From an uncultured Candidatus Saccharibacteria bacterium (GTDB lineage Bacteria > Patescibacteriota > UBA1384 > XYA2-FULL-43-10 > 1-14-0-10-43-13), in assembly GCA_964543385.1 (NCBI GenBank), contig CAZIYE010000001.1:486755-550754 (forward strand): a stretch of DNA of 64,000 nucleotides. Direction: 5' to 3'. The notes under the pieces were generated by a model. The model was not told where the DNA came from. It saw only the letters and a list, made by a program, of their open reading frames with translations, and did no database searches. Of the stretch, positions 2,110-25,064 are shown piece by piece. The first letter of the stretch is position 1; each line of letters opens with the position of its first letter. The translations under genes and the position numbers were made by a program.

Positions 2110-2115
2110 CTCTAA

Positions 2116-3433: not shown

Positions 3434-6400
3434 CTAGAATCCGATATGGGTCCAGGCAACTGTTTGAGGATTTTGCCATATGCCCATGCGGGTATCACTT
3501 TCACATCCGTTACCTTTTTTTGATCCACAAATACCACCGCATGAGATTGAGTCGTTTCCTAATCTGGGCTGGCACATATTCACCGTTATCATCCCTGCTT
3601 GATCAAAATAATCTACATCTTCTTTTCGGCCTGTCATAATCTGGATTGGATATATCGGCTCATTGTCAGTTGTATTATATTTCTCGTAATTTTGGATCCT
3701 CATCATATTTTCTATCAATTTTCTTGCCTTATTCTGAGAAGCCTCAACCATTTTCTTTTTGAGTAGTTCGTTTATGTTGTTATTTTGCTTGATTTGTCCG
3801 CCCCATACTCCCATACCAGTTGTATCATTTATCTTTGGCTGAGGAGCTTCAATCTTTGGATAATATCCATCAGCAGTACAGTAATAGTAAATTTTTTGAC
3901 CCAAAAGATATCCTGCCAAAGCTATAACTACTGCTGCTGTCCACCCCACCGGACCAAGACCAAGCAAAGGCGCGACCACGAGATTATAAACAGCCACAGT
4001 TATCAAAGGAGTCAGGGTGCCAGGGATCATTCCCAAGCTATCTTCTACTCCCGCGATTTGCTTGTCTAAAAGCTTTTCTACTGCAATTGATACAATTTTG
4101 TATACCACTAATGTTTCCGCAGCAGTAAAAGCTTGTTTTGCTGCATCTTTGGCTTCTGCTAAGTCAGAGATCTTATTTAATTCCATAAACTCTTTAGCGT
4201 TGCTCGACAGTTGAGCAATATCTTTCACTCTTGAAATCTCTTCATATATCTTCCAAGACTTATAAAGATCATAACCAAGTTTAAATATTTCAAGAGACTG
4301 TCCAGCTTTAAGGCCCAGTGTTTTATCTGCCCAAGTAAAAAGCTTTGTCGTAATAACAGTAGTTAATACCCCCCCCACAGTTGGCAGAGACATAGTTGAA
4401 CCATCAGCTACAATTGTATTATGTGTTGTGCTATCACCTTTAACAATGTTATCTAGAGTTATTGATTTCAAGCCCCAGTCGCCGGTACCGACACCGACAA
4501 GAAGTCCTTTGGCCAAATCTCCACTTATTGGGAAGCCAAACCATTCCTCGGAATTATCTGAGAGGAAGTTGCTGAAGAAATCAAATCCATTACCACTTGC
4601 AAACGTTGTAAAGGCATCTTTATCTCCGGCCACAAAATCCTTAGCAAATTTTGCTACCTGGATCCATTCGTCGACATTTTTAATTGCCTCAAAATTTTTG
4701 CCTAGTAAATGGCCATTTGTAAGGCCTGTTTTAATATATCTGGCAAGGGCAGCTGCCTTTATCTCAGCATTACCCTGAAGCAGGTCTCTGGCCATGCCTG
4801 GGTAAGAGTTCTCGTCTAATTTCCAAAGAGCAATATCGAGCATCTTGAATTGGAGATTATCCAAAGAAGCTTTTCTTATTGATTTCTGTACCGTTGTTAG
4901 TAATTCTCCATTTTTGGGAGTAAAGTTTGCACCGCTTGGTTGATAATAAGATTCTGGATTAGAAAGTCTGTCCAATCTGCCTTCTGGGTCTCCATTGTTT
5001 TTATTATATTCAGAAACACATTTATTATATTGGTCTCCACTCGCTTGGTTGGTCGATTTCTGGCAGGCCGCTGGAGCGGCTGCATTATTGCTCACAATGC
5101 TTGTATTTAACTCGTCGATCTTACTTTGCAAATTCTCCGGCGAATAATTATATTGTTCATCAACTTGATTAGTTACTGATGTTGAAGTCGATGTTTCAGT
5201 ATAATTTTTCCCCAGAGAATCGATCAAGGCATCACCGAAATTGCCGCTACCTGTTTTTGGGCAATTATCACCATTACATACCTTTCTTGTTTCCGGATTA
5301 CTGTAAATACCATTAACATCAACCCAAGCCGCCCTCTGATATGCTTCGACATCAGGCGCCCCTATTATAGAAGTTTTTATGTCATCATAGGCTATGCGCA
5401 TCTCTTGTGGAATTGCAGTCTTACACTCGTCGTCTCCATTTGCTGAGCAGTGACTTTTCCTTATATTGTCTATAGGAGCCATAACATAATTAACTCCTAG
5501 AGAAATCGCTGCAATTTGGAAATACTTCATATCCCCACTAACTAGATTAGCGATATCTTCCAAAGGCATATCAACGCCGACTCTTATCTCTTTATTATTG
5601 TAATTTGCCTTAACGTTATATATAAAATCGTGAATTTTATCACTCAATACTTCTTTACCCCATGCGACGATGTCCTCTTTAAACGATCCGTCAACATTTC
5701 CCGAAGGATTTTGGGAGATTGCGGCCTTGCAGATATTATATCGATCGTTGATCTCCTTGCTGAGGGTGGTTCTGGCCTGTTGGACTTCAGTGAGCGCAAC
5801 CTTTAAATCTTCCTGCCATTTTTTATATTCGCTAGAGTTAATATAATCATCCGTTTTTTGCCCATTCTTTGAAACAGGCTTCTGTTTTTCAAGTTCGGCA
5901 AGCTTGGCTTCTGCATTATGCAGACTAGTATCAAGCGGCGATACGGTAGGGTCCGAACTTGCTTCATTTAAACAGTCTTTTGTCTGTCCTGTCGGGCCAA
6001 AAGAAACATGAACAACGCGACTATACAATCCCGTAAAAGAAGCAGCTTTTGAAGAATCAAGCCCAAATTGGTAGTCTATTTTCTGCGCACCAATTTCCAT
6101 CAAAATAGTTCCTGAGTTCATTGGATCAGCAATAATTCTTTGGAAGGTTCCCTCAGGCAAGTTTGCTCTTTCATCAAGCTGAAAAGTGAATATCTGATTT
6201 AAATGATCATATAACTTATCCCACTTCCCATACCATTCGTCTGTTGCCGAACCAGTTCGACAAACTTTTTGTCCGTCGGTTTCGATTATTTTCCCCTGGC
6301 ACTTGAAAATATTATTTAAGTTCTTAACAAGAGTAAGAGCTGTCTCTGACTGATTTTGGTCTAAACCAAGGCTTTCTCCTATTTTGCTACCAACAAGTTT

Positions 6401-9400
6401 CAATCCTGTTTGTTCGCCAACTAGTTGATTGTATTTATCTGGAGTCATACTATTCAAGCCAGCCAAGAGGTCATAAGTAGAGTTTGAGCTTATACCAAAC
6501 TGTTTATCTAAATAATTCAACTGCTGATAAAACTCTATATTCCCAGAATTATTTTGTTGACTCTTGCCTGCAACAGCCAGTGCAGATTTCAGTCGATCTT
6601 TGATTTTTTGATCGATATTGTTAATTGCAGTAAGGGCCGGGCCATTTATAACCAACGATCCCCTTAAATGATTTTGAATTTGCCGTGCTTTGTATTCGGC
6701 GCCAGTATTTTTAATTTTCTTGGCATAGCTATCGCCAAAGATATCTACCAGGGATTTCTCATCAAAAATTTCTTCACCATTATCATCAGAGAGGGGAATG
6801 TTGAAAGATAGAGCGATATTGATAGCGCGGGACCTATCAAAGGCTTCACCGAATGTTGCCCCAAAGAATGTTCCTCTTGGAAGATTCAATGATTGCTCAA
6901 CTTTTGATTGTCCGAAGTTCGATACAAAATCACTAATTTTTTCGCCTTTTAGCGGGAAATAATCTAGGCCGATTAAGCTTCCAAGTATAGATCCGCCAAC
7001 TTGATTTAGAGTACAGTTTCTTGATATTTGGTCTTTTGCATTAAATACCGATAGGACGGTCCCGGGCTTTAAATTTAGCTCCTGATCGATATAGTTAGTA
7101 CTTATTCTGTATAACGATGTAAAATCACCGCCAAGGACATTGTAGAGGTCGTCGGGCCCAAATAATGATGGGTCAATGTTTAGGCCTGAAGCATCAAAAA
7201 TTTTATAGTTAATTACTTTTTCTGCAACTGCTCTACCAACTAATAGTTTGTAATTGGGAACTGGTAAATTTGTGCTGTCTTTGATAAACAATTTACTTAG
7301 AATCTTTTTATCAATATTATTTTTATTGCCTATAGCATCGATAAGTTGTTGGGTTTTTTCTTTATTATTTCCAAATGCATATTGTACATTTTTATCAGTG
7401 ATAAAAGACAACAGGTTATTTCTAATATCAGAGATTTGTGACTTATCACTCGCACTGTCTGCTAATCTTTGGGCTAATTCCTCCAATATATTGCCATATC
7501 TTTGGTCTTTGTTAATCAGTGAATATCGCTGGGCTTCTTCGGGGCTTTTGAAACAATGACGACCCTTCTTGTCGTAATAACAGAAGGAGTTATTCTCTAG
7601 GCTGGTTTCATTTATCGAGAATCCATCCTGTTTAGTATAAGAAACAGGGCATTGATTGCTATCAGATGCGGTATCAGCATAAGGGTTTACAAATACATAG
7701 TCTGGGTTTAATACATCGTCGTTATATTGATCAAGCTCGCTAGGTAAGATCTTGCCGCTTACTAATTTTGTATAAATATCAAGAACATTCTTGCTTATCT
7801 TTAGATTGTTCTCGAGCAAATTTTGTTCATCGCTAGACAGATTTACAGAGTAAAGATTCTTGTCCTTAGTAAATAGTGACTTCGTATCACCGTCTTCTAG
7901 GCCAAGAAGATTATCAATAGACAGGGCCTCTGAAAGTGCTTTTTGCCATGCCAAAACACCTCCAGATTTTAGTGCTTCGTAGTTTCCGCTACCAAGCCCT
8001 AATCGCATCATCAAGTCGCTTTCAGCAGATTTTAATGCATCGTTAAATCCTCTATCCTTAATATTTTGAACGATACTATCAGTATTAAAACTGTTTGCAT
8101 TTGTCTTGCTGCCAAATTGTTCAATTATTTTGTCTTGTTTTTGCTTCCAATTGTCTCTTGCTGAGGCAACCAATAAATCGTAATCAGGCCAGTTTTCAGC
8201 CTGCATCTGGCTCAAAACGTTTAATAATTTATTGCTACTATTAATACCCGTTATATCGGTAGGTAATTCCCCCAGCGGCGATTTGGCTTTATTCAATTTA
8301 CTTGCCAGGTAACTGTTTACTGCTTCATCAATCTTAGTTTTGTCTGCATACTTTAATAATTCTGAGGCATTTGTAGCAAAATCAGCCATTGTAGAGACCG
8401 AATTCTTTTCCTGAAAATAGAATGGTGGCATCGAAAAGACTTCCTCAATCTTAGCTTGGCCGATAGACTTGAAGAACGCGTCACTTCCCCCCATTCCTTT
8501 TTTCTCGAAATTCTCAACTAAATATAAGAGAGAGTTACTTGGTAAACCAAGCTTTGATTCTGCCATATTGGCACCAAATGAGATAAAAAGATCAGTCGGC
8601 GATACATTACCTGCCAAGAACCCAAATATTAGAGAGGAGGCCTTAAACGGCGAGATATTATTATTTCCTCCTCCGCTATCATTGCTAGTCAGATCCATAC
8701 TATTTATTTGAGAAAGTTTAAGGGAGTCCGAAGTTGGTATCTCTCGGCCGGATATGATTTCAGAAGATATCCTAAGGAGTTCGTTGGCATTAAAGATAAT
8801 AGAATTCAGTTCATCAATCTTGTTATTTGCCTCTGCCTTGGCGGTGGTGAAGTTCTTAATTGAATCTAGCTGGGTGACTATAGAGTCAATCTGGCTTGTT
8901 GCAGAACTCATTTTCTCCCACGTATTTTGTATTTTTATTGTATTTGCATCACTAGATTCAAAAACATTTTTGAGATTACTAATTAAATCATTAATTTCAG
9001 TATATGTATTCTCGAAACCTGAATCCTTGCTTGCAAAGATTTTCCAATCACCCTTAATATCAGCCAATAATTTTTGTGCCTGATTCAATCTTGATGTATA
9101 AAATGCGATAGTACTGTTGCTAATTCTTAATTCTGGATTCGTGTTTAATAAATCTATTTTGGTTTTGTCTTCTTTGTTGATTAATTTGTTTGCAACACCT
9201 GTATATAAAATTTGTGAACCGATCCTCTTGAAGACGGGGCTATTATTAGCTGTAGAACAACCAAAGATCCTTTGCAGGTCAAGTTTCTCGAGCCCAGCTA
9301 GCATGGACTTTTCTTCTGTCACAATAAAATCATCAGTTCGTGTTTCCACATTTTGGTCAGAGTATACTAGTGAATACTCAACTTTTTGTGTTATTGGAAT

Positions 9401-11854
9401 AGCTGGTAGAGCGTTAGAAATCTTAGAACTGCCTTGAAAAATAATTTGTCCCTCTGGTGTAATTTCATAGTCTAGAGTTTTGTTTAGCTTTGGGGCACTA
9501 CATTCGTTGCTTGATTTTTGAATGTTTCCACGAAGCCACTGTCGGAAAATAAATCTGCCAAATTCATCTGGATTAATATCTTGTGTTACGCCCCCTTCGA
9601 TAACTCGGATTTTTTTATAACTCTGGTCTGAGCTTCCCTTTGGTGCTACGCTATCATCTGCTAGGAGCCGTGCCAGAGTGTAGATGCCGATAGTTGATAG
9701 GCTCTCATGATCACCACTTAGCGCTCCCTCCCAAGTGTCTCTAATATCCGGTTGTTTCTCTGTTGGGCCTGGTAATTGATAAGCACCATTATTCATTGAA
9801 AAATATTTTAAACCATAGAGTGTGTCATCAAGTCTCTTCTTGCCTACCATCGCAGCAAAATCTGCAGAATTGATTCTTTCTAGAATAAAATTATTTGCCG
9901 TGCCTGCACCAAGATTTAGGTCATTATCAATCAATCCAGGATTGTTTTTAATCAAAGTCGACCTCAATGAGCCGATTTTATCCGAGAGGTTGCCGAAGGT
10001 TACTGCTTCTTTCGGCCAAGAGTTGCCTGCTAGATTCAAATCTTTTTCGATAACTTTTGCGCCTACATAGTTAGCGAAAACATCATTTTTTGAAGTAACA
10101 AAGGCATCTAAATCACCAGCGTTCAGATTCATCTCATGTTCTAACTTTCTCTGGCCAATCTTGATGAGAGTTGATGGCAGGTCACTACCTGATAGCGAGC
10201 CAAAAGGTATTCCTAGCTTCTTCTCAATTGCTGATCGGCCGATAGTGTATTTTATTTTCTCAATGTCTGAAAGATTCTGACCAATAAATATTTCTCTTGG
10301 CAACCCTAAATAATCAGCAACATAAGTACTTCCTAGCTTCTTGAGGGTATCTTCTACATTAAATCCGGCAAAGTTCAGACTCTTCGATTCTAAGACATTA
10401 CCTAACAGGGATTTTCCTAATATCTGAATTATATCTTCAAAATTAGCCTTGCTGAGATCTCCTTCATAAGAAGAGATGTCGCTATTCAAGTTGCCCAGCA
10501 AACCATTGACTGATTCGGAGGCAGCCGATTTTAGAAGACTCATCATATCAAATGGATCTCTCTCTCCGGATGCATTCCAGCCGTCGGTAGTTTGCCAAGC
10601 TAATTTAATTGGTTGTATCGGTTGTTTATATTTCTTTGTGCCTCCAGTGTTCTTTTTAACAACCTTCGTACACCTGATATCATCGATCTCTGATATATCT
10701 ATAGCTTGCCCTTCAGCATGAGAGGACAGATTGCGTTCCTCTACAAAAGAGTCCTCCTTTTCGGTAAGGCTAGTTAGGTAGGCCTCATATTGAGCACCAT
10801 TCTTATCTTCAATTTCAAGATCTGGGGTCGTTCCTTTTTGTTTGCCACAGTCAGCGGCAGTCATTTCATCGCTACAACCTTTAGACACAGACTTTTGGCT
10901 ATTAGCCAGAGTTTGTACCACAGAATCAGATTCTGTTGATTTATCCTGCCTTTGCAGAATGCGATTAACTCTTATTCTCCAGTGGCCAGCCCCACCCTGA
11001 TTTTTTGGAGTAATTAGGTAGACCAAGGTTTTAAGAACCCTTACATCAATATTCAGCGAGTCTATAGATTCTTTTAGTTTTTCTGCTAAATATGGCTTAT
11101 CGTGGTTAACATAATTAATAATTCTTTCGCGCCCGATTCCTGTCACACAAACCAAAGTGTCTAAATCAACAGAAGGAACTTTTCCTTTTTTTAAATTATC
11201 TTCTTCATCTGCCCAAATATCTCTTATTTTATTTTCGCCAACATTCTTTCTTGCAGCTTCGGCAAGACGATTAAAAAGTTGCAGATTGTCGAATCTCTCA
11301 GTAGAGGTTAGGTTATCTCTTCCGATCTTCAAATATTTTAAATATTCAATTGGCGTCTTGAAATCTTTGTTAGATTGCAAATTTTTATCTACGATCTCTG
11401 TTTGATCCTTAGGCAAGTTTTTATATAGGGCATCAAAATCTTCATCAAAATTTGGGAGTATATTGGAAAGACAGGAAAGTGATTTCAAGGCCGCTAAATC
11501 ACTTTGTTTCATAATTATTTTCTGTTCTGATGAATTTGTTAACAGATCATCAAAAGTAATAAGGCTATCTTGATCGGAGAACTGAGCCATTGTTTCTAAT
11601 AATTTCTTATATGCCAAAGAGTCGCTCAGTGTTTTTTTTACCTTACACTGCTGGTTATCTTTAGTTGGTATATAAGAATACTTTTTCTGATCAGCAACTT
11701 TTATTAGCAAAGGAATCTCTGGATCATAATCAATCTCTCCATCGTTGTCATCGGCTGCTTTTGCATTCAAGGCAAAAGCATATCCTGTGGATCCAAATGC
11801 GATTGATATTATCAATAAGTAAATAACAGTCTGTTTTAAAATATATTTCAACAT
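3434..11854 (-). CDS. Giant (~2,806 aa) secreted or surface-anchored protein with an N-terminal signal peptide, coiled-coil-rich body, two C-terminal TM helices and a Cys-rich tail
   Basis: It is a single uninterrupted 8.4 kb ORF. The likely start is MLKYILKQTVIYLLIISIAFGSTGYAFALNA (signal peptide), whose ATG overlaps the stop of the upstream M23 gene (TAATG). The C-terminus has hydrophobic segments 'LTPLITVAVYNLVVAPLLGLGPVGWTAAVVIALAGYLLG' and then a Cys-rich tail (CGGICGSKKGNGCESDTRMGIW). It is the last gene of the T4SS-like operon. An alternative start at 11887 extends it by 11 aa. Confidence 0.8.
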   Translation of the reverse strand: MLKYILKQTVIYLLIISIAFGSTGYAFALNAKAADDNDGEIDYDPEIPLLIKVADQKKYSYIPTKDNQQCKVKKTLSDSLAYKKLLETMAQFSDQDSLITFDDLLTNSSEQKIIMKQSDLAALKSLSCLSNILPNFDEDFDALYKNLPKDQTEIVDKNLQSNKDFKTPIEYLKYLKIGRDNLTSTERFDNLQLFNRLAEAARKNVGENKIRDIWADEEDNLKKGKVPSVDLDTLVCVTGIGRERIINYVNHDKPYLAEKLKESIDSLNIDVRVLKTLVYLITPKNQGGAGHWRIRVNRILQRQDKSTESDSVVQTLANSQKSVSKGCSDEMTAADCGKQKGTTPDLEIEDKNGAQYEAYLTSLTEKEDSFVEERNLSSHAEGQAIDISEIDDIRCTKVVKKNTGGTKKYKQPIQPIKLAWQTTDGWNASGERDPFDMMSLLKSAASESVNGLLGNLNSDISSYEGDLSKANFEDIIQILGKSLLGNVLESKSLNFAGFNVEDTLKKLGSTYVADYLGLPREIFIGQNLSDIEKIKYTIGRSAIEKKLGIPFGSLSGSDLPSTLIKIGQRKLEHEMNLNAGDLDAFVTSKNDVFANYVGAKVIEKDLNLAGNSWPKEAVTFGNLSDKIGSLRSTLIKNNPGLIDNDLNLGAGTANNFILERINSADFAAMVGKKRLDDTLYGLKYFSMNNGAYQLPGPTEKQPDIRDTWEGALSGDHESLSTIGIYTLARLLADDSVAPKGSSDQSYKKIRVIEGGVTQDINPDEFGRFIFRQWLRGNIQKSSNECSAPKLNKTLDYEITPEGQIIFQGSSKISNALPAIPITQKVEYSLVYSDQNVETRTDDFIVTEEKSMLAGLEKLDLQRIFGCSTANNSPVFKRIGSQILYTGVANKLINKEDKTKIDLLNTNPELRISNSTIAFYTSRLNQAQKLLADIKGDWKIFASKDSGFENTYTEINDLISNLKNVFESSDANTIKIQNTWEKMSSATSQIDSIVTQLDSIKNFTTAKAEANNKIDELNSIIFNANELLRISSEIISGREIPTSDSLKLSQINSMDLTSNDSGGGNNNISPFKASSLIFGFLAGNVSPTDLFISFGANMAESKLGLPSNSLLYLVENFEKKGMGGSDAFFKSIGQAKIEEVFSMPPFYFQEKNSVSTMADFATNASELLKYADKTKIDEAVNSYLASKLNKAKSPLGELPTDITGINSSNKLLNVLSQMQAENWPDYDLLVASARDNWKQKQDKIIEQFGSKTNANSFNTDSIVQNIKDRGFNDALKSAESDLMMRLGLGSGNYEALKSGGVLAWQKALSEALSIDNLLGLEDGDTKSLFTKDKNLYSVNLSSDEQNLLENNLKISKNVLDIYTKLVSGKILPSELDQYNDDVLNPDYVFVNPYADTASDSNQCPVSYTKQDGFSINETSLENNSFCYYDKKGRHCFKSPEEAQRYSLINKDQRYGNILEELAQRLADSASDKSQISDIRNNLLSFITDKNVQYAFGNNKEKTQQLIDAIGNKNNIDKKILSKLFIKDSTNLPVPNYKLLVGRAVAEKVINYKIFDASGLNIDPSLFGPDDLYNVLGGDFTSLYRISTNYIDQELNLKPGTVLSVFNAKDQISRNCTLNQVGGSILGSLIGLDYFPLKGEKISDFVSNFGQSKVEQSLNLPRGTFFGATFGEAFDRSRAINIALSFNIPLSDDNGEEIFDEKSLVDIFGDSYAKKIKNTGAEYKARQIQNHLRGSLVINGPALTAINNIDQKIKDRLKSALAVAGKSQQNNSGNIEFYQQLNYLDKQFGISSNSTYDLLAGLNSMTPDKYNQLVGEQTGLKLVGSKIGESLGLDQNQSETALTLVKNLNNIFKCQGKIIETDGQKVCRTGSATDEWYGKWDKLYDHLNQIFTFQLDERANLPEGTFQRIIADPMNSGTILMEIGAQKIDYQFGLDSSKAASFTGLYSRVVHVSFGPTGQTKDCLNEASSDPTVSPLDTSLHNAEAKLAELEKQKPVSKNGQKTDDYINSSEYKKWQEDLKVALTEVQQARTTLSKEINDRYNICKAAISQNPSGNVDGSFKEDIVAWGKEVLSDKIHDFIYNVKANYNNKEIRVGVDMPLEDIANLVSGDMKYFQIAAISLGVNYVMAPIDNIRKSHCSANGDDECKTAIPQEMRIAYDDIKTSIIGAPDVEAYQRAAWVDVNGIYSNPETRKVCNGDNCPKTGSGNFGDALIDSLGKNYTETSTSTSVTNQVDEQYNYSPENLQSKIDELNTSIVSNNAAAPAACQKSTNQASGDQYNKCVSEYNKNNGDPEGRLDRLSNPESYYQPSGANFTPKNGELLTTVQKSIRKASLDNLQFKMLDIALWKLDENSYPGMARDLLQGNAEIKAAALARYIKTGLTNGHLLGKNFEAIKNVDEWIQVAKFAKDFVAGDKDAFTTFASGNGFDFFSNFLSDNSEEWFGFPISGDLAKGLLVGVGTGDWGLKSITLDNIVKGDSTTHNTIVADGSTMSLPTVGGVLTTVITTKLFTWADKTLGLKAGQSLEIFKLGYDLYKSWKIYEEISRVKDIAQLSSNAKEFMELNKISDLAEAKDAAKQAFTAAETLVVYKIVSIAVEKLLDKQIAGVEDSLGMIPGTLTPLITVAVYNLVVAPLLGLGPVGWTAAVVIALAGYLLGQKIYYYCTADGYYPKIEAPQPKINDTTGMGVWGGQIKQNNNINELLKKKMVEASQNKARKLIENMMRIQNYEKYNTTDNEPIYPIQIMTGRKEDVDYFDQAGMITVNMCQPRLGNDSISCGGICGSKKGNGCESDTRMGIWQNPQTVAWTHIGF

Positions 11855-13578: not shown

Positions 13579-13671
13579 ACCTAAACTTTGTCTATACCGC
13601 CAAAAGACCGGTCATCATATGTCTAACTGGGATTCAAGCACTTTCTAAATTATAATAACAGTATTATGCTG

Positions 13672-14934
13672 CTATTCGACATTTAATGCTCTGATCGCCT
13701 CATTATCTTGGTAAATAATGATGTTGTTATCATCGGTCAGCACTAGATTGTGAATAAAAGTATCCCCAAGATTCTTGATAACAAAACCATTCTGCTGTCT
13801 TTTTTTTGTGTCATATTTGAATATTGATTCCTCTTTTGTATCGGGGTCATAAGTAGCCACAATAATATTTTCAGAATCCTTGCTCCAAGTAGTCTTTTTC
13901 AGTTCGGCTCTGATGTCCAGCGATTTTTTATTAGTGCCATCTTTATCCATAATAGAAAGGATTGATTCTACTGGCCCTTCTTGGCTTTTAGAATATGTTG
14001 AATAGAGTATTTTATTGCCATCAGGGGAGAAATTAGCATCAAGCTGGTTTCCTATGTCGGCAATCTCTGATATTTTTCGTGAATAGGAATTAAATAAATA
14101 AATCTTATTCTTTTCGGTATCCTCATTGCGGGGAATTATTAAAAGCCATTCGGAGTCAGGAGACCAACGTAAAAGGGGATTATCAATTCCATAATCATTA
14201 AAATTGAGCACTCGCGTAATTTCTTTATTTGCTGCGCCAGTAAAGATTAATGACTTCTCGCCATCTTCCGGTGCATAGTAGTATGCGATCTTAGAATTGT
14301 CTGGAGCCCAAGCGATGCTACCAATATTATTACCCCACGAATCTTCATTTTGATTGATAAAGTCATATTTTTTCAAATCAAAAAAGGAAATGATTTCAGG
14401 CTTACGTAGCAAAGCTAGATCTTTTGTTGGAGACCAGATAATTTCATCTATGTCTGATATTACAGGATTTGTAACGGCTCTTTCTTCGGCCAACTTTACT
14501 CTTTGTCCGACATCTGTTTTTGTGCGTACCCTATATATTGTTGTCCCATTTTGGTAATAAATATCATTAAAATCATTACCCTTATTTAAAAACTTTCCGC
14601 CGATAGAAATAGTCAGAGGATCGGGGGTTCTATCTAGGCTGATAGTAATTTTCTTAGGCATACCCCTTTTAAAATTCATTTCCTGATTTATGCCGATATA
14701 TCCTCTTGCTTCAATTCTGATCATATGTAGGCCTGGAGAGATAAAACGACGTATTAGACCAGAGTCGGGAACAGCAAAAGGCTTGCCGTCGATTGAAAAT
14801 GAAGAATTAGTGGGCTCTAGCTGAATATTCATAAATGAATGAGTAATAAACCATAGGAGCACAATCAAAGCCAGAGTAATTGCTGATATTACTAGAAATA
14901 TTGAACGTGTTAATTTTTTAATTTCTTTATGCAT
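13672..14934 (-). CDS. Membrane-anchored PEGA-domain plus TolB-like (PD40) beta-propeller protein
   Basis: An N-terminal TM (IFLVISAITLALIVLLWFI) is followed by a PEGA-like segment (FSIDGKPFAVPDSGLIRRFISPGLHMIRIEARGYIGINQEMNFKRG). Repeated PD40 signatures follow: WSPTKDLALL, IAWAPDNSKIAYYY, WSPDSEWLLII, FSPDGNKILYSTY, WSKDSENIIVATY. Confidence 0.65.
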   Translation of the reverse strand: MHKEIKKLTRSIFLVISAITLALIVLLWFITHSFMNIQLEPTNSSFSIDGKPFAVPDSGLIRRFISPGLHMIRIEARGYIGINQEMNFKRGMPKKITISLDRTPDPLTISIGGKFLNKGNDFNDIYYQNGTTIYRVRTKTDVGQRVKLAEERAVTNPVISDIDEIIWSPTKDLALLRKPEIISFFDLKKYDFINQNEDSWGNNIGSIAWAPDNSKIAYYYAPEDGEKSLIFTGAANKEITRVLNFNDYGIDNPLLRWSPDSEWLLIIPRNEDTEKNKIYLFNSYSRKISEIADIGNQLDANFSPDGNKILYSTYSKSQEGPVESILSIMDKDGTNKKSLDIRAELKKTTWSKDSENIIVATYDPDTKEESIFKYDTKKRQQNGFVIKNLGDTFIHNLVLTDDNNIIIYQDNEAIRALNVE

Positions 14935-14974
14935 TTTTATCTATTTTTATTTTATAATAAATTGAATATTTTTG

Positions 14975-16255
14975 TTAGTATTGCTCAATTCTTAAGTGAA
15001 AGTGGGCCTTGTGCTTATCCCATGCTACCATGCGCCCTGGCTTTTTATTTTCTATAGCATAGCTATTTACTGCCGCTATAACCTCTGAGTCTTCGTAACC
15101 AATCCTTGTGGCGCCACAATTGATCAGAAGTTTACCCAGGTCTATCATCATTTGTCTATTTGCAGCATCATAATTATTATTAGCTATAGCTGGTCTCTCC
15201 CTAACATTCATCATGTGGCCAGGTAGTAATATATCAGCGTCGATTCCTTTGGCGTGGGAGGCATGACCGTCAGCCTTTTTGCATTGCCCGCTCAATTCAC
15301 CGATAACAAGTTTTGGTCTGCCGGCTTCAGCCCACTGTTTGCTAACAGATACAAGAATATTAATTAATGACGGCTTGCCCCAATGTTCTTCTTTATCGCC
15401 GCTCTTTGTGTAATACTTTTCAAGTGCTGGAACTTCTACCCAACCGCAGGATGAGCCCTTATAACCAAGGTTAAGGTTTGTTTTGCAAAGAAGAGAATTT
15501 GGAATGAGTTTAGTAGTTACCGATGCAAGTGAGAGACAGCCATTATTAAGTCCTTGAAAATTTTTCCATGTGCGCAATGCATATCCTGGTCCATTTGGGT
15601 TTGGGTAAGGTGCTCCCCAATTCCACCCAGGGTTTTTCGTATTCTCTGGTGCCCTATCTAGAGGAAAACCCATTTTTTTCCACTCCCTTAATCTGGCGGG
15701 GCCTCTGTTATAAAGCATTCCCGCAGCCTTCACAGTTTTTTCGTCAGCCCCGTCTGCTTTCAAACCATTATCTTCGAGATGGTATTTTATATATGCAGCT
15801 GCGGCTAATGCAGAATCAGCGAAATCGTCTGGATTACCTGTGGGCTTATCTGAATATTTTTTATAAATATTACCGGCCCACTTACCGTCAAAATCCTCAA
15901 TCTGAAAAGGTCCCTTTGCATTTCCGCCTCGTGCCCAAATTCCATTAGCACCAGCAGAAGCCTTAATAGAATCACCGTGCTCTGCCATGAATATAGCTCC
16001 AAGCAAGGCAGGTTGTATCCCAACCTTGTTAGCAGCTTCCTCAATGGCCGATTGATACCCGCTAGGAGCTGCATCCCAGGACGTACAGCGTATATTGCCA
16101 AATAAATTAACAGGGTTTACGGTTTCCTTTATTCTTCCGCTCCACAGAGATGTTCCAGCTGCAGTAAAAGCGAGTGAAAGTACTGCGGCCAAACCTAAAA
16201 CAGCCAGTATTATACCGGCCTGAGTAAAACCCTTGCTGTTTCTGTGAAACATCAC
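14975..16255 (-). CDS. Bifunctional cell-wall hydrolase with an N-terminal lytic transglycosylase (SLT) domain and a C-terminal M15/VanY-like peptidase domain, acting as a VirB1/CwlT-like T4SS accessory
   Basis: A signal/TM N-terminus is present. SLT motifs are GIQPALLGAIFMAEHGDS (catalytic Glu context) and GPFQI. C-terminal 'ASHAKGIDADI' (H-x2-G-x-D-x-D) and terminal 'DKHKAHFHLRIE' (HxH) match the LAS/M15 zinc-peptidase pattern. The gene lies directly downstream of virB4. Confidence 0.65.
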   Translation of the reverse strand: MMFHRNSKGFTQAGIILAVLGLAAVLSLAFTAAGTSLWSGRIKETVNPVNLFGNIRCTSWDAAPSGYQSAIEEAANKVGIQPALLGAIFMAEHGDSIKASAGANGIWARGGNAKGPFQIEDFDGKWAGNIYKKYSDKPTGNPDDFADSALAAAAYIKYHLEDNGLKADGADEKTVKAAGMLYNRGPARLREWKKMGFPLDRAPENTKNPGWNWGAPYPNPNGPGYALRTWKNFQGLNNGCLSLASVTTKLIPNSLLCKTNLNLGYKGSSCGWVEVPALEKYYTKSGDKEEHWGKPSLINILVSVSKQWAEAGRPKLVIGELSGQCKKADGHASHAKGIDADILLPGHMMNVRERPAIANNNYDAANRQMMIDLGKLLINCGATRIGYEDSEVIAAVNSYAIENKKPGRMVAWDKHKAHFHLRIEQY

Positions 16256-16256
16256 A

Positions 16257-19071: not shown

Positions 19072-19088
19072 ATATTAACTTTAAATAA

Positions 19089-19511: not shown

Positions 19512-19577
19512 TTAACCCCTCCAAAGATATTCTTCAATTCAATTTTACCATTAAGATGAAAGACAATCAATCAAAGG

Positions 19578-20396
19578 TTATTCGGGCAATGGGATAATAT
19601 AATCAGTCTTGTTTTGCATTGCTAAGTCTTCTTCTTCAAACCAATAAGCCGCAATTTGATCTATTAACTGTCCTTTTGACGGGTTATTTTTCGGATTTAT
19701 TTTTCTGCACTTCATAACAGCATTACCAGCCGTAACCATTCTCTCAACGATTGTCATAAGCATACCGGCAGTCTTCGTTTCGAGCATATCTTTTGGGTGT
19801 CCTGCCTTGGTTAGTGCCTCTATTGCCCTTCTCTTGGCATCGTTTGGTACTAGAATTAAGACTTTAAGATCAGCATGAGTATAGACAAGCTCACTGACCT
19901 CTGCTGCTACTTCTTCATATATCATATTCACATATCGACTACAGTATGGCAATATTTCCAGAAATTCCTCCCAATACTCAGTCACCCTCATAATCTTTTT
20001 TGACTTCTCGAGCAGAATGATCCTTCCAATCGATTTGACGGTTTCTTCAAAATTATTTTCATCAACCTTAAAATCGATGTTATTTTTCTCACAAGTTTCG
20101 TTTAGTTTACCAATCACAATTTTCTTATCAGCTTTCTTAAGGACATCAATATTCATTTTTGATGCAAGGTCGATGAATTTTATTCGCTGGTCTCCGATAG
20201 TAATATTTAAAACATCACAGTAAGATCCCTCGGCCAGAGAAGCAGACATCATAATGGGGAACGATTCCTTTCTTATAAGATCTATATATTCGGCCTTTTT
20301 ATTGCGCAGAAAAACCAGACTCTCACTAAAAGAACTGGTGTTAACGGCTGACAGGATAATATCATGTAATATTTTTTTTGCTTCCTCTTCTTGCAT
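19578..20396 (-). CDS. Hypothetical cytoplasmic protein, T4SS-operon-associated
   Basis: The 272-aa product has no TM segments or recognisable motifs. It is tightly packed between the VirB6-like and VirB3-like genes on the same strand. Confidence 0.5.
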   Translation of the reverse strand: MQEEEAKKILHDIILSAVNTSSFSESLVFLRNKKAEYIDLIRKESFPIMMSASLAEGSYCDVLNITIGDQRIKFIDLASKMNIDVLKKADKKIVIGKLNETCEKNNIDFKVDENNFEETVKSIGRIILLEKSKKIMRVTEYWEEFLEILPYCSRYVNMIYEEVAAEVSELVYTHADLKVLILVPNDAKRRAIEALTKAGHPKDMLETKTAGMLMTIVERMVTAGNAVMKCRKINPKNNPSKGQLIDQIAAYWFEEEDLAMQNKTDYIIPLPE

Positions 20397-20413
20397 TTTT
20401 TACCTTTTGAATA

Positions 20414-23038
20414 CTAAGTTGGCGCACCTGGCAATAATTGTGTTTCTACGGCATCGTTTAAATGGCGACGATCGGAATTCTTTGGATAAGTTTTATAATA
20501 ATCCACCATTAGTGTTCTCAGAGTTTCAGTGTCACCATTTGTGACCGCTGTCTGAAATGCATCCCAAAGTGCTGCAGCGGTCTTCGAGTCTGTACGGTGA
20601 TCTTTCTTTAGTTCTTCAACAAGCCATTTTTGACCGATAGATAAGACATCGGATTCCGGCGCTTGGCTAAGAATTGCCTCGGTGGTCTTGGCGCTATCTG
20701 CTTCACTATTCAAGTGGTACCTCATCCCCTCGGCATTAGCATAAATTCTACTCTCCTTATTTGAATCTTCAATTACCTCACCATTTCTTAGTCTTGATGT
20801 TAGCTCTTCGGTTAAGCCATCTTTTAGATCGGAGCCAAAGAAAATACTAACCGTCTCTTCAGCACTTCGCTTGGCATAGTCATTTGCAGCTCGACTATTC
20901 GTTTTGGTCATAGCAATACCTTTGTTTCTGGTATATACAACTCTTTCCATTAGTCTGATATCATCGACTCTGCCATCTTTGTCTAAATGGACCATATCTC
21001 TGAGGTGTGAATCGATATAGCCTTTATCGGGATCATCTAATTGTTTATTTAATTTATCAATCATCCTTTGCCTATTTGTTGTTGCCTTCTGTACTGCATG
21101 CGAAAATCTTTCGCTATCGAGAACTAATTGTTCGCCTTCTTGGAGAATATTCTGTGATGCAAGGATATTGGAGACTCTGCGACTGGTTGACATTACATCG
21201 AGGACGGCTTTCCTTCGTTTCTCGGTCGCTGTAGCTTCCTCTTTTGTCATTTGATCTGTCTTTGTAATCTCTGCAAGGGCTCTGGCATGTTGTCTTTTCT
21301 CATCTGCCGTCAACTGGTCGAGCGCTTTCTTTCTTGACTGCAGGTATTTGATGAGCTCTCTAACTTCTGCCGAGGAAGAATCTGATAATTTCTTGATCTC
21401 GTCTAGCATCATAACAGCCAATTGCCTTTCTTGAAGAGCGCTTCTTTCAAGAGCTGGTTTTACTGAAGCGTCGTTGAGCATTTTTTCCATACCGGCCTTT
21501 GACGATTCTTCGGCAGATCTTGCTCTGCGAAACAATTGCTGGAAAAGTTCTGCTTCTTTTGCGTCAGTACCAAGAAGCGCCAGATTTGATGCTTTTCTTT
21601 TGGCAAACTCTTCTTTGCTTTCATGATCCTTTTGACTTCCGCCGCCACTTAGCCATAAATATTGACCATTTTGTCTTAAGGCGTTATCCATACTTGTAGC
21701 AGCCCCCATCCGACCCGCGGCCATACCAGAGCCGGCTCTCCATTTCTCGTATTGCTTCCACATCGGATTTTCAGGGTCAGTGATACCTAGTTTTTGCAGT
21801 GCTTCAAGTCCATAGGCTTCATATTCGCCGACTTCACCATTACGGTTTTTTATCCACTCAATTTCCATCGTGCGGCTAAGGCCCTTATCGAGGTTATACC
21901 TCCCCTGTATACCCTCGGTAATTCCCTTAGATAATCGCGATACATGTGCTTCGTCTGCTGCTAATTTGTCCCCACCACTTCCAATCCAATTTTTACCAAG
22001 CCATCTGACCCAACCAAACTTGCCCTCTCTTTGCATATTGAGTCCAAACTTCTTATATCTTTCCCAACCAAGACTGGCTGTGGCTTTAACTCGACGACCC
22101 CAATAGTCTTTGGCATTGTTTGCAAGGAATTTAGATCCGGTGTATGTCCAAAATTTATCCATAACTACGCCACCCATCTTGAATGGTATGGCAATGGCGG
22201 CATATAAACAAAGGCCAGCCAATAAGGCACTAACTATAGGTGACGGCAGCCATGAGGTTGCTACGATAGGATTCTCAACGAATATAGTCCCAAGCCATAG
22301 GAAAAAGATTGCTGGCACTGGCATGAATGTCCATTTTAAAAATTCACTCCACCATTTACTAAAATATGGTTTTGTTTGAGGAAGAGCCAGTGTCATGAAA
22401 GCGACGGAAGAAACTATTGTCAAAAGATATATCATCCATGTTCGAACAATAAATATAAAACTGAGTACGAGGGTAAGAGCACTTCCAACAAGCATAAATA
22501 ATATTTTTACAACAACATCAAAGAACATCGAGTAAGTGAACTTTGCGAAATCTATAGATTCGCCCATCAATTTATCTCTAAAAGTATATTTATAAGTATC
22601 TCCCATGCCAGACGCTTGGCCTAGTAGGTTTGGGTCGGTAAATAAGGTGATAGACATATTGGCAAAGTCTATTACCAATTTACATATAAGATAACTAAAT
22701 TGGGCAGCAATGATTGCAAGTAAAAGGGTAGGCAATATCTTTTTAAAACTGTAAGTGTCAATTTTTAAGTGCAGTATCTCAGCGAAAGCTACTACTACTA
22801 CTACTAGGATGATAGGTATATTAATAATATTTAGAAATCCAGTATGTAGATTCTTAATATCATTATTACTTCTTAGTGTTTGTTGTATGGTCTCTGCATG
22901 GGCTTCTGAAGGCATCAAAATAATCACCATTAGAATTGTCAATAGAATAGAGAAGGTGATGTATCTATTTAATTTTAATTTATTGTTAATTAGGTGCATA
23001 TTTAAATTCACATTTTGTTTCTTTAGCACCAATAGCAT
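20414..23038 (-). CDS. VirB6/TrbL-like polytopic membrane protein with a large C-terminal coiled-coil domain
   Basis: An N-terminal signal-like segment (ILLTILMVIILMPSEAHA) precedes at least seven hydrophobic helices across aa ~60-330. The ~500-aa hydrophilic C-terminal domain is rich in coiled-coil/charged residues. Size and topology resemble Gram-positive VirB6 analogs (ConG/TcpH-like). The assignment rests on topology and context, not motifs. Confidence 0.5.
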   Translation of the reverse strand: MLLVLKKQNVNLNMHLINNKLKLNRYITFSILLTILMVIILMPSEAHAETIQQTLRSNNDIKNLHTGFLNIINIPIILVVVVVAFAEILHLKIDTYSFKKILPTLLLAIIAAQFSYLICKLVIDFANMSITLFTDPNLLGQASGMGDTYKYTFRDKLMGESIDFAKFTYSMFFDVVVKILFMLVGSALTLVLSFIFIVRTWMIYLLTIVSSVAFMTLALPQTKPYFSKWWSEFLKWTFMPVPAIFFLWLGTIFVENPIVATSWLPSPIVSALLAGLCLYAAIAIPFKMGGVVMDKFWTYTGSKFLANNAKDYWGRRVKATASLGWERYKKFGLNMQREGKFGWVRWLGKNWIGSGGDKLAADEAHVSRLSKGITEGIQGRYNLDKGLSRTMEIEWIKNRNGEVGEYEAYGLEALQKLGITDPENPMWKQYEKWRAGSGMAAGRMGAATSMDNALRQNGQYLWLSGGGSQKDHESKEEFAKRKASNLALLGTDAKEAELFQQLFRRARSAEESSKAGMEKMLNDASVKPALERSALQERQLAVMMLDEIKKLSDSSSAEVRELIKYLQSRKKALDQLTADEKRQHARALAEITKTDQMTKEEATATEKRRKAVLDVMSTSRRVSNILASQNILQEGEQLVLDSERFSHAVQKATTNRQRMIDKLNKQLDDPDKGYIDSHLRDMVHLDKDGRVDDIRLMERVVYTRNKGIAMTKTNSRAANDYAKRSAEETVSIFFGSDLKDGLTEELTSRLRNGEVIEDSNKESRIYANAEGMRYHLNSEADSAKTTEAILSQAPESDVLSIGQKWLVEELKKDHRTDSKTAAALWDAFQTAVTNGDTETLRTLMVDYYKTYPKNSDRRHLNDAVETQLLPGAPT

Positions 23039-25064
23039 TATTAAAAAGACAGAAAGAGAACTTCCATATTGAAAATGCTAGATCATGGATAAACTTTAAA
23101 ATATTACATAGTGCCCAAGCAAAAGGGTCCAGCCCTTTGCCAGTAATAGATATTTTTGGACATGTTGAATCAAACCATGGGGATGATTTCAGTATGCCCA
23201 AAAATCTTAAAACAGCAATACCGAGTAAACCTGCCCCTACAAGGACTTTTTTGATTGCTCCAGGTATCATCCCTATCCATTTTCCGACTATTTCGGCACC
23301 CTGAAATAGTCCATACAATGCTTTTCCTATCAACCCCTTGAAGCCTGGCTTTGCCATCAGATCAACAATTTTAACTCCGAGTGCTGTCCATAAAAGTTTC
23401 AATTTGTTTCCAGCTCCCGCAAAAAAGGTAATTTTACTTAGCAATCTTCCTATTGGACCAAGTGCTAATTTGCCAATCCAGCCGACTCCTTGCAATAATT
23501 TTCCTGCGGGTATTAATGAAATAGCCATCCATATCGATGCCTTTACGATGTTTCCCGCATTCTTACTCTTTATTGCGTTATAAAGATCAATGCCAGAGAT
23601 TACAATACCTGCCACATACAAGACCGCAACTGCTGCGGCCAATGGGGCGATGGCTTGTGCCCTTTGCGGTCTTAGCCCACCTATTACTGCCCCTTCTTCA
23701 TTTATTCTTAGCTCGTCCATGCTATTAATTTTATCTTCAGGATCTTTGGATAGTTCATTTGCTACTTCATTTCCCATTTCGGGCCAAAAAGGAAGCTCCT
23801 GTAACTCCTCTTTGGTTTGTGGGTCATATGATGCAAGTTTCACTTGGTATTTATCTATTGCTTTAAGAGCTGACATCATCTCTGGTGCCATCAGTATCTC
23901 TTCTGAATATTTTGGCATCTCAAACCCTCTTTGATTGTCAATTTGTTCATCCATGTAGCTTATCAAGTCTGTCATCATGGTGAGATTAAAAAAAGCTTTT
24001 GCCGCTTCTTCTTTATTTTCGATCTTCTGACTATCAAGGTATCGTTTATATGCGACAACGCTATCAGAAAGTTCGGTAGCATCAGCATCATTAAACTTAT
24101 TTGGGTATGAAATCTTATTGCTTTGATCAAGAGTAAAATTACCGTTGGCGGCTGCCTTGGCTAAATGATCCTGAATTTGTTTCCTAGTTTTACAATCATT
24201 TTTGCTGTTGCATTCAAGTTTCTTTAGCCAAAAGTCATTAAGACTACCATTCTCATTGAGATAATTGTTCCAGAAACCATCCTTTTCAATCCCGTTCCAT
24301 GTCTTCTCAACCACCTCAATTTCTCTGGTTATTGGCTCTTTGTACAAAACGAACTTATCATCTTTCTTTTGATAAACCTCTACAATCACTTTGTGTTTGC
24401 TTCCAGATTTATCTGCCACAGATTGAGCCAGAAAAGTGTCCCATGTATAAATAAAGTTAAGTTGTTTCTTATCCTTATAATTGATAAATGAGTCCTTAAA
24501 ACTAGTTCGTCCGTTAGATTCTTGTATTGAAATATTAATTTTATCTATTGTTTCTTCCGAGCTATCTTTAATCCAGAAAGATACAGATATTGGCGTGGTT
24601 GCTCCAAGAGCTACTTTGTCAGCGGTTTGGAGCAAAATTGCAACATCCGGCATCTCTGAATCGTCGGGCACATTCGGAACTACCACTTCAGCGTTACCTA
24701 TATCGCTGTTCTCCGATGAATCATCTGTGGTTGTGGGGGAATCTGATGAATCTGTTTCAGTGTTGTCAGTTTCATCGGCGTCCTCATTTACACTATCTTC
24801 CGTATCTAGTAGATCTTCTTCGGGAGTTAGCATTAGTTCTTCTTCTGCATTGGCTTTATTGATGAGATTTGATAGAGAAGCCTTTTTACTGCTGTTTTTA
24901 AAATTTTCAACCCCATCTGCCAAATATTTTAGGCGGTTGTTGACTCTCGCAATTTCCGCATTGAGATTATTTTGCTCTATTTCCTTGACCTGAATCAAGG
25001 GTTGAAACAGCAAAAAAACTAAGCTAAAAATTAAAGCCCAAGATATTATGCTTCTGAGTTTCAT
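22986..25064 (-). CDS. Secreted protein with a signal peptide, acidic Asp/Ser/Thr-rich stretch and a C-terminal Gly-rich amphipathic hydrophobic domain; T4SS-operon first gene
   Basis: The N-terminus MKLRSIISWALIFSLVFLLFQPLIQV is a signal peptide. The C-terminal ~200 aa are Gly/Ala/Leu/Lys-rich hydrophobic repeats (GKLLQGVGWIGKLALGPIGRLL... glycine-zipper-like). It overlaps the next gene by ~14-52 nt. Confidence 0.55.
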   Translation of the reverse strand: MKLRSIISWALIFSLVFLLFQPLIQVKEIEQNNLNAEIARVNNRLKYLADGVENFKNSSKKASLSNLINKANAEEELMLTPEEDLLDTEDSVNEDADETDNTETDSSDSPTTTDDSSENSDIGNAEVVVPNVPDDSEMPDVAILLQTADKVALGATTPISVSFWIKDSSEETIDKINISIQESNGRTSFKDSFINYKDKKQLNFIYTWDTFLAQSVADKSGSKHKVIVEVYQKKDDKFVLYKEPITREIEVVEKTWNGIEKDGFWNNYLNENGSLNDFWLKKLECNSKNDCKTRKQIQDHLAKAAANGNFTLDQSNKISYPNKFNDADATELSDSVVAYKRYLDSQKIENKEEAAKAFFNLTMMTDLISYMDEQIDNQRGFEMPKYSEEILMAPEMMSALKAIDKYQVKLASYDPQTKEELQELPFWPEMGNEVANELSKDPEDKINSMDELRINEEGAVIGGLRPQRAQAIAPLAAAVAVLYVAGIVISGIDLYNAIKSKNAGNIVKASIWMAISLIPAGKLLQGVGWIGKLALGPIGRLLSKITFFAGAGNKLKLLWTALGVKIVDLMAKPGFKGLIGKALYGLFQGAEIVGKWIGMIPGAIKKVLVGAGLLGIAVLRFLGILKSSPWFDSTCPKISITGKGLDPFAWALCNILKFIHDLAFSIWKFSFCLFNNAIGAKETKCEFKYAPN

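Follow-up and report, generated by a model that had tools for sequence, protein, structure and literature searches.

A predicted non-conjugative type IV secretion gene cluster next to the probable replication origin of a Berkelbacteria-like member of the Patescibacteria

The window analyzed here comprises 64,000 nucleotides of contig CAZIYE010000001.1 (assembly GCA_964543385.1) from an uncultured bacterium of the Patescibacteria. On its minus strand, ten open reading frames (ORFs) follow one another head to tail from position 25064 down to position 3434. Judged from its sequence relationships, this cluster is, with high confidence, a chromosomal, origin-proximal, non-conjugative patescibacterial type IV secretion system (T4SS) that stems from the monoderm MPF_FATA lineage. 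Homology predicts a membrane module of VirB4, TrsD, VirB3, and VirB6 as well as an intact hydrolase that would cleave both the glycan and the peptide portion of the cell wall. The accessory genes, i.e., those of the hydrolase, a degenerate LytM (dLytM) protein, a propeller protein, a giant protein, and a protein of 692 amino acids (p692), are assigned by homology in combination with conserved synteny. Taken as a whole, the locus would very probably encode a patescibacterial T4SS core together with accessory proteins, which may form a host-contact structure.

Gene order and membrane core

Most junctions between the ten ORFs are overlaps or gaps of less than 50 nt. The virB4 gene overlaps trsD by 11 nt, the propeller gene starts 40 nt past the hydrolase gene, and there is an overlap between the giant gene and the M23 stop codon; longer gaps precede prgI (66 nt, after p272) and the M23 gene (93 nt, after the propeller gene). 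An earlier reading of the same DNA, referred to as the original prediction, had described nine minus-strand genes packed with overlaps or gaps of 0-50 nt; the order given there stands, and the spacing does not hold at the two longer gaps.

The VirB4 ATPase is recognized by Pfam P-loop_TraG (6.8e-29) and by the CD1110-type family of NCBIfam (8.8e-111; 371 bits against a cutoff of 325), the latter match covering profile positions 181-735. When a profile made from 25 orthologues was compared with solved structures, the C-terminal domain of VirB4 (4AG5, 4e-64) and TrwK (2.4e-9) were retrieved. Both the Walker A motif AKSGSGKS and the Walker B motif IVDEAW are present in the translation, and the gene is annotated as encoding 617 amino acids in a public assembly. 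The earlier VirB4 call is thereby borne out, and the enzyme is assigned to the monoderm, MPF_FATA-related type.

The product of the ORF upstream of virB4 matches VirB4_plasma (positions 104-282, 9.2e-11), CD1110 VirB4 (positions 2-92, 1.3e-6), and the TrsD family (3.2e-6) of NCBIfam, and its precomputed annotation is PF26593, TraC-like. Because the NCBIfam matches cover what the VirB4 ORF lacks, this protein is taken to be the N-terminal segment of VirB4 encoded as a gene of its own, TrsD-like; alignment of the TrsD family against the VirB4 family with hhalign gave no significant match (probability 0.15%). In 66 of the 80 related loci introduced below, trsD immediately precedes virB4 as an ORF of its own, by which a frameshifted virB4 pseudogene is ruled out. 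"VirB4 in two ORFs" was, therefore, apt as a description of what is not a broken gene but a conserved TrsD/VirB4 pair, as is known from pGO1.

The PrgI/VirB3-like protein, which has two transmembrane (TM) segments, matches Pfam PrgI above the curated cutoff, as had been expected (2.2e-10; 41.4 bits against 27), and prgI adjoins trsD in most of the 80 loci. The case for the polytopic protein p874 is transitive. The protein itself has no Pfam match; among 30 members of its family, 11 match Pfam TrbL/VirB6 (best 8.6e-8), and 29 homologues are encoded upstream of prgI in related loci. About six hydrophobic segments are predicted, with a polytopic N-terminal portion of ~300 amino acids being followed by a hydrophilic, helical C-terminal portion of ~570 amino acids. 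Translation likely starts at M14 (position 22999), giving a signal peptide that ends in AHA. Comparison of the p874/VirB6 profile with solved structures returned no VirB6, coiled-coil noise only. By the transitive route, p874 would represent an extended VirB6, and the earlier VirB6-like call was right in this sense.

Related loci, designated by L-numbers, were obtained from a scan of one genome per species; at least 600 pattern matches were found, at least 568 of them encoding a VirB4 relative, and the best 80 were compared. These 80 loci (53-95% VirB4 identity) belong almost exclusively to metagenome-assembled genomes (MAGs) of Patescibacteria. Among the matches listed, the closest labelled VirB4 relatives are Berkelbacteria, and, judged from these labels, the present genome would be Berkelbacteria-like. 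In L001-L009 and others, the order BacA, TPR protein, p692 slot, VirB6, variable slot, PrgI, TrsD, and VirB4 is kept, and it continues with one or more hydrolases, the PEGA-propeller protein, the M23 slot, the giant protein, and recF-dnaN-dnaA. The proteins in the p692 slot of these relatives are secreted and have 350-650 amino acids, those in the M23 slot ~500. Since this synteny is conserved in Berkelbacteria-like MAGs, the locus is a vertically inherited chromosomal one and not a mobile element.

Three loci labelled Oceanicoccus, Gammaproteobacteria, and Bdellovibrionales (L044, L065, L066) encode a Patescibacteria-type VirB4 with 55-57% identity, two of them along with TrsD and PrgI; binning contamination is most likely.

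Wall hydrolase and accessory proteins

The hydrolase is composed of an N-terminal TM segment, an SLT-like domain, and a MepA-like metallopeptidase domain of the LAS superfamily (Peptidase_M74, 4e-11). The SLT match of the protein itself is just under the cutoff (5.7e-4), and the domain is strong in relatives (best 8.7e-26). In an alignment with MepA (1TZP), the H-x6-D and HxH motifs are kept, with GHASHAKGIDAD corresponding to GHASHQTGLDVD of MepA and HKAHFH corresponding to HRAHMH. Zinc-binding and catalytic residues are thus intact, and the protein would fill the role of VirB1. Of the "SLT+M15" designation of the original prediction, the SLT portion is retained with its weak match, and M15 is better replaced by MepA-like (M74, LAS superfamily). 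Among the related loci examined, the M74 domain occurs in this genome only. Relatives fuse SLT to other domains in proteins of ~700 amino acids, none of the 80 loci combining SLT with M74, and the domains encountered in the hydrolase slot include SLT, CHAP, M23, M15_4, Amidase_3, NlpC/P60, 3D, and Amidase_2. Hydrolase domains appear to be swapped often at this position. The co-occurrence of different hydrolase chemistries, which the original prediction had counted among the elements of an undescribed combination, is thus the rule in this slot.

The propeller protein matches TolB of NCBIfam (7.4e-10) and Pfam PD40. Of 27 homologues, 17 contain PEGA, and most match propeller families, in keeping with the PEGA/PD40 propeller postulated earlier. 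The gene is carried by 31 loci and is located downstream of virB4 in nearly all of them.

The protein encoded next is bitopic, with a TM segment at residues 259-298 and a C-terminal M23 domain (Pfam, 1.8e-8). In comparison with a lysostaphin reference sequence, two of the five catalytic and zinc-binding residues are lost, namely, the histidine of HxxxD, which reads A-D-A-V-D, and the first histidine of HxH, which reads Q-L-H. Losses in L001 and L002 are similar; L005, L008, and L009 have the canonical residues. Most likely, this LytM domain has degenerated and lost its catalytic activity, so that of the proposed TM-anchored M23 peptidase the domain assignment holds and the peptidase activity probably does not.

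The last gene of the operon, beside recF and syntenic in relatives, encodes the giant protein. An N-terminal signal peptide or TM segment is followed by a conserved core at ~251-460 (ORF numbering), long helical regions, a TM segment at ~2624-2662, and a Cys-rich tail; no Pfam match was obtained. Its annotation as a protein of 2,806 amino acids in public assemblies, together with the N-terminal hydrophobic segment and the C-terminal TM segment, agrees with the signal-peptide protein of this length described earlier. Across the protein families of this cluster, general homologue searches returned 1, 0, and 3 matches; for the giant protein, an exhaustive search of representatives with the core was used instead. 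It revealed a family of 134 clusters, nearly all of 1,400-3,200 amino acids and with an N-proximal core; among 116 long members, a hydrophobic segment is present at the N-terminus in 93 and at the C-terminus in 91.

The signature of the core is DxR..L.YLVTP...GGAGH..I.V ... SxHxxGQAxDI ... WQT. The stretch SxHxxGQAxDI resembles the LAS motif of MepA, with WQT at the position of HxH. A LAS/M15 domain in the core is nevertheless no more than a candidate reading, the likeness being confined to the motif: Pfam on 21 homologues and two profile searches against solved structures were negative for a LAS fold, the AlphaFold2 model of the core reached a pLDDT of 55, and Foldseek found no LAS or other match. 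Between residues ~547 and 1663, the pattern L-[GN]-[LI]-[PN]-x-G-[ST]-[LF] occurs six times after a helix, compared with 0.8 expected from shuffles; this repeat is conserved in the family consensus (LGLPxGSL) and matches no known repeat family.

For p692, the product of the first gene, no Pfam or NCBIfam match was found. Its features are a signal peptide, a low-complexity stretch of acidic character, a beta-sandwich (~135-252), a helical region, TM segments at 469-498 and 600-627, and, at the C-terminus, a Cys-loop/helix module; the AlphaFold2 model (pLDDT 41) is usable for the one beta-sandwich only. Homologues comprise an identical copy, P0135, and two proteins of 60-62% identity; for the homologue in L010, 59% was calculated by BLAST and 61% from a MAFFT alignment. 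A metagenome scan for p692 found nothing, and hhalign of p692 against VirB6 was negative. Homologues were found only at ~59% identity or more, and p692 is a fast-evolving protein. The proteins in the same slot of seven relatives (among them L002, L003, L005, L006, L008, and L009) have a single feature in common, a C-terminal module of C-x12-18-C followed by an amphipathic helix, by which a variable surface domain could dock.

The protein p272, encoded between virB6 and prgI, has no Pfam/NCBIfam family match, and its sole homologue was found in L010. It contains no TM segment and is therefore not a canonical bitopic VirB8. In relatives, this slot is occupied by one to three other soluble proteins that are unlike p272 and show no detectable homology to it.

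Chromosomal setting and neighbouring genes

The window opens inside dnaA, with dnaA-dnaN-recF-DciA at 78-3421; rnpA-yidD-yidC are located to the left of dnaA on a public contig of the same genome. DnaA-box-like sites (TTATCCACA, at most one mismatch) number seven in the dnaA-dnaN spacer (623-975) and 17 in the 15-kb locus, where 4.4 are expected, and the spacer is the probable oriC. The T4SS operon starts ~2.5 kb from this probable origin and is transcribed towards it, and therefore would be head-on to replication. A convergent arrangement of operon and oriC is also seen in Southlakia epibionticum, L022, L035, L037, L041, and L042.

Families of type IV coupling proteins (T4CPs), relaxases, and VirB11 are found neither in the ORFs of at least 100 amino acids across the 64 kb nor in ~3.8 kb of left and ~6.6 kb of right flank, which were taken from public contigs of the same genome. 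The original prediction, according to which a VirD4/TraG-like ATPase, a relaxase, and VirB11 are missing and a VirD4 or relaxase just outside the window would point to an ordinary conjugative element, is thus in agreement with the window and with ~10 kb of flanks, and its view of canonical conjugation as unlikely is shared, no relaxase or coupling protein being nearby. In contrast, the statement that there is no integrase in the 64 kb had to be corrected on account of a tyrosine recombinase (Table 1). In L003 and L005, too, its gene is found in synteny with PAP2 and BacA; because of this conservation in relatives, the recombinase is probably a housekeeping Xer protein (XerC/D). GC content is even across the region.

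Further upstream than p692, the minus-strand run starts with BacA, followed by the TPR gene, which may belong to the same transcription unit as the T4SS cluster. The TPR gene lies between BacA and the first T4SS gene also in L002, L003, L005, L006, L008, and L022. The 123-nt gap upstream of p692 holds a promoter-like site. Coordinates of all these features are compiled in Table 1.

Table 1. Features of the T4SS cluster and its surroundings, in transcription order for the cluster genes.
Feature	Positions	Strand	Basis and remarks
p692, 692 aa	22986..25064	-	First gene of cluster
p874, extended VirB6 family, 874 aa	20414..23038	-	Homologues match TrbL/VirB6
p272, soluble orphan, 272 aa	19578..20396	-	No TM, no family match
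PrgI/VirB3-like, 140 aa	19089..19511	-	Pfam PrgI; two TM segments
TrsD-like, 323 aa	18100..19071	-	NCBIfam matches to VirB4 N-terminal segment
VirB4 ATPase, 617 aa	16257..18110	-	NCBIfam CD1110 family
SLT + MepA-like hydrolase, 426 aa, TM-anchored	14975..16255	-	Pfam M74, SLT
PEGA + TolB-like (PD40) propeller, 420 aa, TM-anchored	13672..14934	-	NCBIfam TolB, Pfam PD40
Bitopic M23/LytM protein, 568-574 aa	11854..13578	-	Pfam M23
Giant protein, 2,806 aa counted from M12	3434..11854	-	No Pfam match; family synteny
Promoter-like site TTTACT-18-TATAAT	25112..25141	-	Consensus scan, 10/12 matches; consensus match only
TPR protein, 215 aa, TM-anchored	25188..25835	-	Weak Pfam TPR_2 match and N-terminal TM
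BacA/UppP	25832-26611	-	End overlapped 4 nt by TPR gene
Tyrosine recombinase, probably Xer	27679-28656		Phage_integrase 2.9e-48

Beyond the cluster, genes for BacA, PAP2, a 23S-rRNA-IVP protein, the tyrosine recombinase, a Mur ligase, FemAB, and TsaD are encountered. Two small genes of the window (27302-27682 and 34253-34612) belong to the 23S_rRNA_IVP family, of which members are also found within the T4SS clusters of relatives (L005, 9557-9943; L006, 1217-1639 and 7693-8076; L008, 1753-2133). Their position there varies, being between trsD and virB4 in L005, and they give the impression of small genes that are mobile or were inserted independently. An ORF of 245 amino acids at 33398-34135 has a Phd/YefM antitoxin domain at its N-terminus (1.3e-10), its length being exceptional for an antitoxin.

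A long cell-surface polysaccharide region extends over positions 35233-63444. It includes a Wzm/Wzt ABC-2 exporter, many glycosyltransferases of GT2 and GT4, RmlD-like and epimerase genes, a Wzx-like flippase, GtrA, and large ORFs of 578, 655, 472, and 427 amino acids without family match. A SAM riboswitch (RF00162, 59.6 bits, 57979-58079) is found directly upstream of the S-adenosylmethionine synthetase gene (58137-59321). The protein of 409 amino acids encoded at 62215-63444 shows a weak dockerin match; a dockerin-domain protein is among the essential surface proteins of S. epibionticum.

Relation to known systems and possible role

The closest described counterpart is found in S. epibionticum ML1, where SEML1_0004-0019 lie directly after dnaA-dnaN-recF on the opposite strand (Wang 2023, PMC10633639). 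This region encodes VirB4, a 293-aa protein at the TrsD position, PrgI, two VirB6-like proteins, an NTF2-like protein, a PEGA exported protein, a lysozyme/CHAP protein, a 1,113-aa protein with Hedgehog/DD-peptidase domain, and six VirB2-like pilins, and by transposon sequencing nearly all of these genes are essential in co-culture (PMC10633639). Another Saccharibacteria counterpart is the TM7x region (McLean et al. 2020, PMC7427843). The present cluster and that of S. epibionticum share the site after dnaA-dnaN-recF and the transcription towards these genes, the order VirB6-like protein, PrgI, TrsD-like protein, VirB4, wall hydrolases, and PEGA exported protein, a large protein, which in S. 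epibionticum has a DD-peptidase-type domain, and the lack of a relaxase or T4CP in the cluster. They differ in that S. epibionticum possesses an essential array of six pilins, of which there is none in the 64-kb window or in the closest relatives, and has two VirB6-like proteins plus the NTF2-like (VirB8-like) protein where one VirB6, p692, and a soluble orphan are encoded here. The hydrolase is SLT plus MepA-like instead of lysozyme/CHAP, PEGA is fused to a TolB-like propeller, and the 2,806-aa protein ends the operon, unlike in S. epibionticum.

In a survey of Patescibacteria, VirB4 was detected in 2,417 of 3,035 genomes, forming a clade nested in MPF_FATA (Quinonero-Coronel 2025, PMC12102498). 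TrsD, PrgI, and VirB6, the last mostly by weak profiles, were located near virB4, with the TrsD/VirB4 pair being reported as the most abundant T4SS component; VirB8 was mostly undetectable, relaxases were almost absent, T4CPs were lacking, and dnaA, dnaN, and rnpA were frequent neighbours (PMC12102498). The present locus conforms to this picture in its MPF_FATA-related VirB4, the TrsD and PrgI genes nearby, the weakly recognized VirB6, the absent relaxase, and the origin-proximal position; it differs in that pilins are near virB4 in many assemblies (1,135 of 1,948) and none are found here. PEGA, PD40/TolB, and giant proteins near virB4 are not mentioned in the survey text, and UBA1384 (Berkelbacteria) has few entries in the available part of its genome list (PMC12102498). 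A 2025 review speaks of the patescibacterial systems as newcomers to the T4SS superfamily. In view of SEML1_0004-0019 and of the survey, the claim that the architecture had not been described cannot be upheld; features specific to the lineage are the propeller-PEGA fusion, the giant-protein family, the degenerate LytM protein, the fast-evolving first gene with its conserved Cys-helix module, and the lack of adjacent pilin genes.

With the conjugative MPF_FATA systems (pGO1 Trs, pCF10 Prg, CTn2 CD1110, ICEBs1 Con/CwlT), the cluster has VirB3, in part TrsD, VirB4, VirB6, and a bifunctional wall hydrolase in common. The TrsD/VirB4 split is that of pGO1 (TrsC-TrsD-TrsE, TrsG), the PrgI-type homologue recalls pCF10 Prg (PrgI, PrgJ, PrgH, PrgK, PrgL), and CTn2 CD1110 provides the best VirB4 family match. 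Unlike these systems, the present one has no relaxase, T4CP, or recognizable VirB8-like protein among its detected genes, nor was an oriT noted, although no search aimed at it was made; it is chromosomal, next to oriC, and vertically conserved, and has propeller, dLytM, and giant proteins in addition. Bordetella Ptl, Brucella VirB, and Helicobacter pylori ComB likewise work without a coupling protein, Ptl moving substrates first exported by Sec and ComB importing DNA. They are, however, diderm MPF_T systems with VirB7/9/10 outer-membrane cores and show no sequence relationship beyond VirB3/4/6.

On this basis, a scenario may be envisaged in which the hydrolases would locally open the cell wall, in the way known for PrgK, CwlT, and TcpG of conjugation systems in monoderms. 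Peptidoglycan around the opening would be bound or organized by the propeller/PEGA protein and by the LytM domain, which is most likely inactive. Without a coupling protein, the VirB4/TrsD/VirB3/VirB6 module would then assemble or extrude p692 and the giant protein, its substrates being membrane-anchored products of Sec export and not cytoplasmic ones; parallels for such a motor are the function of VirB4 in pilus assembly and the two-step Ptl pathway. The outcome would be a host-contact structure required for epibiotic growth. That such a structure would be needed to exploit the host follows, by analogy, from the essentiality of the homologous cluster in S. epibionticum, the one species tested (PMC10633639), and a role in the interaction between episymbiont and host, as considered in the original prediction, agrees with literature proposals. 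Assembly of a host-contact structure or conduit is put forward by this analogy as the main role at somewhat less than even chances. Export of effector proteins is an unlikely main role, and it is quite unlikely that the extracellular part of the T4SS in this Berkelbacteria-related sub-clade would not be a VirB2-type pilus but would consist of lineage-specific proteins exported by Sec and anchored in the membrane, i.e., the giant protein, the PEGA/TolB propeller, and p692, which VirB4/TrsD would erect through a gap cut into the wall by the hydrolase so as to reach the host.

Several observations weigh against the main reading of the cluster as a host-contact T4SS. The pilin hidden Markov model (HMM), which was built from relatives, gave no match in L001-L012 or in the window, where the best E was 0.19, no cluster ORF has the VirB8-like layout of an N-terminal TM segment followed by a domain of ~200 amino acids, and a T4CP or a pilin array may be present elsewhere on the 671-kb contig. 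Co-transcription of the cluster is predicted from gene spacing alone, promoter and terminator scans over the whole operon having remained at chance level. Single pilin genes or tandem arrays were detected by the same HMM in L013, L020, L028, L029, L032, L036, L042, and others, and all eight pilins of relatives that were tested belong to PF18895.

The pilin HMM also matches proteins of 350-650 amino acids in distant relatives (L077, 13091-14593; L057, 16225-17886; and others), with further large matches in L054 (19414-20550) and L052 (17771-18802). In at least L057 and L077 (15846-17381), the same ORF was also found by the SLT-hydrolase profile. This suggests that pilin domains are fused to larger proteins in distant relatives.

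A possible but rather doubtful alternative to the host-contact structure is that the cluster is an importer of nucleic acids or other macromolecules, comparable to ComB of H. pylori or Ced of Sulfolobales, by which an auxotroph would be supplied with nucleotides; the import of host nucleic acid or other macromolecules is held to be equally doubtful as the main role. As in ComB, neither T4CP nor relaxase is found. According to the literature, ComEC is dispensable and the T4SS essential in S. epibionticum, the T4SS having been proposed as nucleotide source, and a 2026 preprint reports uptake of host RNA along with tubular host-interface structures in a cultivated member of the phylum. VirB4 does match CedB of NCBIfam, but weakly (5.6e-14) and with a score far under those of the conjugative VirB4 families. 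Furthermore, Pfam and NCBIfam revealed neither nuclease domains nor domains that bind DNA or RNA among the cluster proteins, and the direction of transport is established for no patescibacterial T4SS.

It is less probable still that the T4SS comprises the genes from p692 through virB4 plus the hydrolase only, with the propeller, dLytM, and giant proteins forming an independent envelope or adhesion module. The 93-nt gap before the M23 gene is the largest inside the cluster, the propeller, M23, and giant proteins resemble no known T4SS component, and the propeller homologue of L036 is encoded upstream of virB4 on the opposite strand. Such a division is difficult to reconcile with the short distance between hydrolase and propeller genes, with the overlap of the giant gene and the M23 stop codon, and with the fact that the genes for all three proteins follow virB4 in many loci. 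Moreover, the corresponding positions of the S. epibionticum cluster encode the PEGA protein and a large protein with a peptidase domain, both of which are as essential there as the T4SS core. That the cluster is an integrative conjugative element, decayed or atypical, with relaxase, T4CP, and integrase elsewhere, is highly improbable: its VirB4 family is otherwise conjugative (CD1110/CTn2-type) and the tyrosine recombinase is only 2.6 kb away, but that recombinase looks like a housekeeping Xer, gene order and oriC-side position are kept in relatives at 57-83% VirB4 identity, also in Saccharibacteria, and neither a relaxase or T4CP in ~74 kb nor a GC anomaly was found, so that an element of this kind, or a prophage, is rejected on account of synteny and the failure to find mobility genes.

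Summarizing, the T4SS core with accessory genes that may serve host contact does not add a new kind of system, and its value lies in the separation of fixed from exchangeable parts between lineages. Fixed parts, all of them beside oriC, are VirB6, PrgI, TrsD, VirB4, the wall hydrolase, and a PEGA-containing protein; those that can be exchanged are the domains of the hydrolase, the array of pilins, the giant protein, the secreted product of the first gene, and whichever soluble proteins fill the variable slot. If the extracellular part were built without a pilus, the result would be a T4SS-dependent surface organelle of a new kind. A clade that has the motor and no adjacent pilin genes would be a useful natural comparison for finding out what the machine builds or moves.

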